64,000 nt of DNA from a phage, in NCBI GenBank assembly GCA_021537435.1, contig GCA_021537435.1_3050.1, one strand, 5' to 3'. A model generated the notes under the pieces. The model had not been told where the DNA came from, did not search any database, and was given only the letters and a program-made list of their open reading frames with translations. Position 1 is the first letter of the stretch, and each line of letters begins with the position of its first letter. Positions 33,001 through 33,399 of the stretch are shown one piece after another. A program made the position numbers and the translations under genes.

Positions 33001-33399
33001 TTTGGTCATTTAATTCAACAAAGCGATGCCTATTCAACATTTGTCCGTGATGTTTATGTCCGTTCTGATATTCGTGTTAAAAAAGACCTTGTTAAATTTG
33101 AAAATGCTTCTGAGAAGCTTTCTAAAATTAACGGTTACACTTATATGCAGAAGCGAGGCTTAGATGAAGAAGGCAATCAGAAATGGGAACCTAACGCCGG
33201 TTTGATAGCTCAAGAAGTTCAAGCTATTTTGCCTGAATTAGTTGAAGGTGACCCTGATGGCGAAGCTTTACTTCGTTTGAACTATAACGGTGTAATTGGT
33301 TTAAATACAGCTGCAATCAATGAGCATACTGCAGAAATTGCAGAACTTAAATCAGAAATCGAAGAACTTAAAGCATTAATTAAATCATTGTTAAAATAA
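30094..33399 (+). CDS. 37: long tail fibre distal subunit gp37 with C-terminal intramolecular chaperone domain
   Basis: 1101 aa; N-terminus [13 protein letters not shown] as T4 gp37; C-terminus has SDIRVKKDL...[16 protein letters not shown], a peptidase S74-like self-cleaving chaperone. Confidence 0.9.

Follow-up and report, generated by a model that had tools for sequence, protein, structure and literature searches.

The S74-type intramolecular chaperone domain of gp37 in a T2-type long tail fibre of a Tequatrovirus and its predicted release before capping by gp38

The long tail fibre locus

The window, a stretch of 64,000 nucleotides of phage DNA (GenBank assembly GCA_021537435.1, contig GCA_021537435.1_3050.1), carries a long tail fibre module in which genes 34 (24370-28242), 35 (28251-29366), 36 (29429-30085) and 37 (30094-33399) are followed 3' by gene 38 (33434-34213) and the holin gene t (34244-34900), beyond which asiA and other genes are located on the opposite strand. 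The same order of this T-even module is annotated in T4, T2, S16, RB69 and UFV-AREG1. At the DNA level, the segment spanning genes 37 and 38 is 96.5% identical to Escherichia phage UFV-AREG1, a Tequatrovirus in which gene 37 is annotated as 'long tail fiber protein distal subunit', and its identity to the O157 phages AR1 and EC121 is about 90%; a further 24 kb of the window share about 96% with other phages of the T4-like group, such as slur02 and BW-1. The window stems from a Tequatrovirus whose long tail fibre is of the T2 type.

Gene 37 (30094-33399, + strand, including the TAA stop codon at 33397-33399) encodes the precursor of the long tail fibre distal subunit, a protein of 1101 amino acids and 118.9 kDa. 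The TCT codon of Ser991 starts at position 33064, and the C-terminal piece from Ser991 to Lys1101 comprises 111 residues with a mass of 12.3 kDa, in good agreement with the 'about 112' residues and 'about 12 kDa' given in the preliminary description of this DNA. The coordinates of that description correctly covered the tail of the protein together with its stop codon, but the protein end that it quoted, ...AEIAELK, falls 15 residues short of the actual C-terminus. Upstream in the same protein, amino acids 407-557 (31312-31764) share a module with amino acids 943-1102 of gp34 (27196-27675), which are 36% identical (E = 1.5e-19) and are detected by Pfam as Gp34_trimer (PF21446); such a trimerisation and shaft domain, shared by both half-fibres, proximal and distal, has been known before.

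Gene 38 (33434-34213, + strand) begins 34 nt past the stop codon of gene 37 and encodes a T2-type tail fibre adhesin of 259 amino acids, composed of an N-terminal PF21721 (Gp38_N) domain at residues 1-40 (E = 9e-21) and a PF05268 (GP38) domain at residues 45-259 (E = 4e-72). Trp7, Trp20 and Trp35 have aligned tryptophan counterparts in the gp38 proteins of S16 and T2, and polyglycine motifs are obvious in the glycine-rich C-terminal domain. The gp38 proteins of phages HY01 and PEC04 are 100% identical to that of the window. An NCBIfam family is assigned neither to gp37 nor to gp38. A mechanical list of open reading frames starts gene 38 at a TTG codon at 33422 (263 amino acids); judged from the sequence context, the true start is almost certainly the ATG at 33434 (259 amino acids, MAVAGPWVG...), because a GGAGG motif is located upstream, the annotation of UFV-AREG1 agrees and Gp38_N matches from residue 1.

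Just upstream of the GGAGG Shine-Dalgarno sequence of gene 38, the gap between the two genes holds GGGGC-UUCG-GCCCC, a hairpin with a perfect stem and a C(UUCG)G tetraloop (33408-33421, + strand), and the minimum free energy of its 56-nt context is -16 kcal/mol (z = -1.6). As a terminator this GC-rich hairpin was dismissed, as a T-run is missing on the + strand and no + strand terminator was called. CUUCGG hairpins are known in intercistronic regions of T4, and the hairpin may stabilise the mRNA or affect the translation of gene 38.

The S74 domain at the C-terminus of gp37

The extreme C-terminus of gp37, the last 111 of its 1101 residues, is an S74-type intramolecular chaperone domain. PF13884 (Peptidase_S74, 'chaperone of endosialidase') matches the whole protein with 48.5 bits (E = 1.1e-12) and the 111-residue piece alone with 54.4 bits (E = 1.6e-14), with a curated gathering cut-off of the family of 22 bits. 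The match spans residues 991-1050 (33064-33243, + strand), which constitute the alpha/beta core of the chaperone, and extends over positions 1-57 of the 58 profile positions; homologues of this core share the invariant motifs GLIAQ...PELV...LRLNYNG. In addition, the last 199 amino acids match the S16 gp37 tip in chain A of PDB 6F45 with E = 7.6e-44. The gp37 chains modelled in 6F45 comprise 68-72 residues versus 204 in the deposited sequence, which fits a chaperone that was cut off before crystallisation. The autoprocessing domain of MyRF (7DC3) is a weak sequence match to gp37, for which a profile constructed from homologues reaches E = 2e-4.

The predicted fold agrees with this assignment. 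An AlphaFold2 monomer model of residues 905-1101, a construct of 197 amino acids, was computed with an alignment of 22 short proteins or fragments retrieved by a word-indexed protein search with the 111-residue domain. The model shows pLDDT values of 70-96 over the chaperone from about residue 995 onwards, with 70-90 in the S74 core, and predicts a small alpha/beta unit followed by a 37-residue C-terminal helix, while the tip upstream of the predicted cut has pLDDT values below 50 and the monomer model is unreliable there. The helix, residues 1064-1100 (33283-33393, + strand; residues 160-196 of the construct, pLDDT 86-96), is predicted to form the trimeric coiled-coil stalk of the chaperone. 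Trimer formation by gp37 is established for T-even fibres (PMC12892980, PMC3157838), and the chaperone of T5 has a central coiled coil (PMC4690869). In a Foldseek search against the PDB, the top match is 7DC3, the ICA domain of MyRF (E = 3e-5, probability 1.00), followed by 3GW6, the 'Intramolecular Chaperone' of the K1F endosialidase (probability 0.96-0.99), and 6F45; meaningful matches are limited to these three entries. The domain of MyRF, a eukaryotic transcription factor, is the closest solved non-phage fold to residues 991-1101 (33064-33396), a relationship of S74 domains between phages and eukaryotes that is already known.

The domain is also widespread. In a tblastn search against 50,697 phage records, in which records with a match were counted, the 111-residue chaperone was found in 1476 records, 179 of them with at least 95% identity and RB69 among these. 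The matches reach fibres of Salmonella, Klebsiella, Vibrio, Synechococcus and Pseudomonas phages, and an identity of 30-55% to fibres of phages with hosts as unlike as the last four of these does not fit a role in receptor binding. That the S74 match arises by chance or from composition, for example driven by the coiled coil, and that the C-terminus is a receptor-binding tip as in T4, is therefore next to impossible: while weak coiled-coil matches (DivIC, NET2A, E of about 0.04-0.06) are all that speaks for such a reading, the PF13884 match lies in the non-helical part, residues 991-1050, with E = 1e-14, and together with the 6F45 match, the occurrence in fibres of phages that infect very different bacteria and the Foldseek matches it already refutes a chance resemblance. 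The assignment of a peptidase S74-type intramolecular chaperone to the end of gp37, made in the preliminary description from the letters alone, is thus borne out by the Pfam match, the structure match and the fold search, and the domain is real and was read correctly.

The residues expected to carry out the cleavage are conserved. The C-terminus of gp37 was aligned with those of UFV-AREG1 gp37, T2 gp37, S16 gp37, the K1F endosialidase and T5 pb1, with the sequences drawn from the respective genome records. Ser991 (codon TCT, 33064-33066, + strand) and Lys996 (codon AAA, 33079-33081, + strand) share columns with S911/K916 of endoNF, S1264/K1269 of T5 pb1, S638/K643 of S16 and S1243/K1248 of T2, so that five proteins, three of them experimentally characterised, have this pair in register, and the S-D-x3-K spacing is identical in all of them. 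Ser991 is the predicted catalytic and scissile residue and would become residue 1 of the released domain, with Lys996 as the predicted general base activating it. The designation of this serine as the autocleavage nucleophile had been made before, and its position at the catalytic serine of characterised homologues, with a lysine at +5, supports it. For T5 pb1, the mutation S1264A abolishes cleavage, the hydroxyl of the scissile serine is close to Lys1269, by which it is activated, and the serine departs together with the chaperone (PMC4690869).

The predicted scissile bond is Arg990-Ser991 in the motif DVYVR↓SDIRVKK (the arrow marks the cut), which exactly fits the pattern of homologous sites such as DLNVS↓SDRRIKK of S16 and DVYIR↓SDGRLKI of the fPS phages; homologues retain the DV(Y)(V/I)R↓SD motif around the cut. 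In S16, the last 113 residues of gp37 are autocleaved between both serines of this motif, which exposes the docking surface for gp38, and the site of the fPS phages, Yersinia Tequatroviruses, is predicted to act likewise (PMC7917993). From the aligned sites of S16 (DLNVS↓S) and T2 (NVYIR↓S), the mature gp37 is predicted to comprise residues 1-990 with a mass of 106.6 kDa (30094-33063, + strand) and to end in the beta-strand DVYVR, which is predicted to form the docking tip for gp38.

A deviation from the canonical domain concerns an arginine that serves as folding sensor and oxyanion helper, which in endoNF (Arg897) and T5 (Arg1250) is located at -14. In T5, Arg1250 is provided by the adjacent chain, and a correct trimer is thereby a precondition for cleavage (PMC4690869). 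Aligned to K1F and T5, gp37 of the window lacks an arginine at -14 to Ser991; the only arginines nearby are Arg985 (-6), which is common to S16, and Arg990 (-1), common to T2 and most homologues, and from their positions both are candidates for the folding sensor. On this ground it could be argued that the S74-like domain has lost its ability to cleave and remains part of the fibre for good, as a trimerisation or structural module. Such a retained domain is very improbable considering that Ser991 and Lys996 are intact, that the DV(Y)(V/I)R↓SD motif is kept in homologues, that a retained chaperone would block the surface for gp38 while an intact T2-type gp38 with its tryptophans is encoded in the adjoining gene, and that the uncleaved form of T5 is non-functional in competition assays (PMC4690869). 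A speculative and unlikely variant of the cleaving domain would be that the RB69/AR1 chaperone subtype uses a variant active site or a folding sensor different from that of K1F and T5, as an arginine directly precedes the serine and an Arg-Asp pair is located at -6/-5 with no arginine at -14, or else that the released 12-kDa trimer has a second role, such as passing the tip to gp38.

gp37 and gp38 among T-even fibres

Compared with T4, the distal fibre protein is homologous at its N-terminus and shaft and distinct at its tip. Residues 1-677 of gp37 align with residues 1-788 of T4 gp37 with 34% identity (BLASTP, E = 7e-100), and within this stretch the first ~60 residues, the gp36-binding end, are about 90% identical. 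Beyond residue 677 of the window protein no T4 gp37 match was found by BLASTP, and beyond residue 788 T4 gp37, which there forms its needle and head (residues ~790-1026), gave no significant BLASTP alignment to gp37 of the window. A T4-type tip is absent: whereas T4 gp37 is devoid of an S74 domain and ends in its own receptor-binding needle, gp37 of the window ends in the chaperone. Equally, whereas T4 gp38 is an unrelated 183-residue assembly chaperone that is not retained on the fibre, gp38 of the window has no similarity to it by BLASTP (best E = 17), a result in support of the different tip maturation proposed in the preliminary description.

The preliminary description had further regarded the distal fibre as a mosaic of a T4-like shaft and a tip with a different maturation mechanism. 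The homologous N-terminal part followed by a different C-terminus and the S74 tip itself hold up, but 'T4-like shaft' is generous for a region with near-identity in its first ~60 residues and 34% identity overall, and the protein is not a notable mosaic since it belongs to the textbook T2-type fibre of the majority. A true mosaic with a shaft recently imported from T4 was rejected: the region of residues 1-677 is 33% identical to T2 gp37 and hence equally far from T4 and T2, and gp37 is 90-100% identical to that of RB69 over most of its length.

The closest relatives are RB69, AR1, PP01 and UFV-AREG1, with gp37 proteins that are essentially the same and only patchwise divergent. UFV-AREG1 gp37 is 96.5% identical over all 1101 residues, with a divergent patch at residues 751-850, and RB69 gp37 is 90-100% identical in most blocks of 50 residues and 97% in the chaperone. 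Against RB69, the identity falls to 48-72% in residues 151-350 (30544-31143) and 701-800 (32194-32493) of gp37 and to 35-65% in residues 121-259 of gp38 (33794-34210), the receptor-binding half, as compared with 80-98% in residues 1-120 of gp38. This patchwise divergence of both proteins is typical of T-even fibre gene shuffling, and gp37 is a standard RB69/AR1-type protein, with the unusual tip belonging to T4.

Indeed, the T4 fibre arrangement is the exception and the T2-type arrangement the ordinary one in the majority of phages. T2-type gp38 was detected by tblastn in 889 of the 50,697 phage records and T4-type gp38 in 297, a ratio of about three to one. Trojet et al. pointed out that the form found in T4 does not predominate and that C-terminal subtypes of gp37 pair with N-terminal subtypes of gp38 (PMC3157838); the RefSeq comment to gene 38 of T4 makes the same statement about the T2 subfamily, and a 2026 paper on PP01 gp38 repeats the split into T4-type and T2-type fibres (PMC12892980). 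The Pfam domain is already precomputed on database copies of gp37 of the window. The S74 chaperone tail of gp37 is consequently already known and near-identical in hundreds of database genomes, and represents no new biology.

Within NCBI, entries of 170-183 amino acids named 'tail fiber domain-containing protein [Escherichia coli]' match residues 932-1101 of gp37 (32887-33396). Several of them are located on contigs of ~166-167 kb and three start at the internal Met932; they appear to stem from phage genomes that were deposited as E. coli and in which gene 37 was called truncated or split.

Predicted maturation of the fibre tip

The system most similar to that of the window for which a mechanism is at hand is the long tail fibre of Salmonella phage S16, of which the gp37-gp38 tip mechanism was reportedly solved structurally by Dunne et al. 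in 2018 (Structure 26:1573; PDB 6F45); the CASP13 highlights paper on this structure makes no mention of the chaperone. Both share the gene order 36-37-38-t, 47% identity over tip and chaperone (residues 911-1101 of the window protein, a representative of the RB69/AR1 chaperone subtype), a chaperone of 111 versus 112 residues, the cut motif x↓SDxRxKKD with a lysine at +5, whereby FVRDVYVR↓S of the window aligns with YCRDLNVS↓S of S16, and a gp38 with an N-terminal tryptophan attachment domain and a polyglycine-rich C-terminal domain. They differ in the residue before the cut, which is arginine in the window and serine in S16, in the much longer shaft of the window protein (gp37 of 1101 versus 749 residues) and in the hypervariable loops of gp38. 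In S16, the N-terminal tryptophans of gp38 plug into the gp37 tip exposed by cleavage (PMC7917993).

T2 and T6 likewise represent Tequatroviruses in which gp37 loses its C-terminus and is then capped by a gp38 of ~260 amino acids, the gp38 adhesin of T2 and T6 reportedly having been described by Riede et al. in 1987. The T2 site NVYIR↓SDIRLK differs little from DVYVR↓SDIRVK of the window, but the T2 chaperone is shorter with 99 residues, the identity over the C-terminal region is about 29% and the N-terminus of T2 gp38 is of another subtype. A PP01-type gp38, which is related to gp38 of the window, is not functional on, or incompatible with, T2 gp37 (PMC12892980).

The more distant K1F endosialidase (PDB 3GW6, the MEROPS S74 type example) and T5 pb1 (PDB 4UW8) have in common with gp37 the Pfam family, the serine and the lysine at +5 at the domain boundary, a C-terminal trimerisation helix and the release of the chaperone once the trimeric beta-structured fibre or spike has folded. 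On the other hand, their chaperones are larger, with 154 and 133 residues, and possess long 'tentacle' hairpins missing from gp37 of the window, a threonine precedes the cut and an arginine is present at -14, and the tip left after their release does the receptor binding or enzymatic work itself and is no platform for a separate adhesin.

From S16, T2, T5 and K1F we infer cleavage of gp37, the exact bond and the docking of gp38. It is very probable that gp37 is a precursor with an S74-type chaperone that cleaves itself between Arg990 and Ser991, that the chaperone is then released and that the tip is capped by gp38. Three copies of the chaperone would join via the C-terminal helix and set both the nucleus and the register for folding of the trimeric, beta-structured tip that precedes them. 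Correct folding of the tip would be followed, in each chain, by activation of the Ser991 hydroxyl through Lys996 and by a cut between Arg990 and Ser991, upon which the 12.3-kDa chaperone trimer would dissociate. Its loss would expose a flat hydrophobic platform of three DVYVR strands, into which a single copy of gp38 would put its N-terminal tryptophans, and the host receptor would then be recognised by gp38 and not by gp37. The point of the cleavage, which the preliminary description had missed, would thus be to uncover the docking platform for the T2-type gp38 encoded next door.

Whether the domain alone suffices for the cut has to be weighed against the helper proteins of T-even fibres. T-even fibres generally need gp57A, as known from T4, recombinant S16 fibres were reportedly made with co-expression of gp57A, and gp57A is not necessarily dispensable for the fibre of the window. 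This general need is one ground for the view that gp37 does not strictly cut itself but is processed by a protease of the host or the phage, or depends on gp38 or gp57A as a cofactor; another is that the work of Drexler, Riede and Henning (1986) on the processing of T2 gp37, in the form in which it is cited in Trojet et al. (PMC3157838), established processing and not mechanism. We regard dependence on a protease or cofactor for the cut itself as very improbable, as the recombinant homologous domains of K1F, T5 and S16 show self-cleavage, a single exchange of serine to alanine stops the cleavage (PMC7917993, PMC4690869) and the same Ser/Lys pair is found in gp37 of the window.

For this fibre, maturation by self-cleavage at Arg990-Ser991 would mean that the receptor-binding protein to be annotated is probably gp38 and not the C-terminus of gp37, and that the mature gp37 would end at Arg990. 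For host-range engineering and the production of recombinant fibres, the chaperone should be kept in the construct and its removal expected, and in the engineering of such fibres the N-terminus of gp38 must suit the subtype of the gp37 tip.
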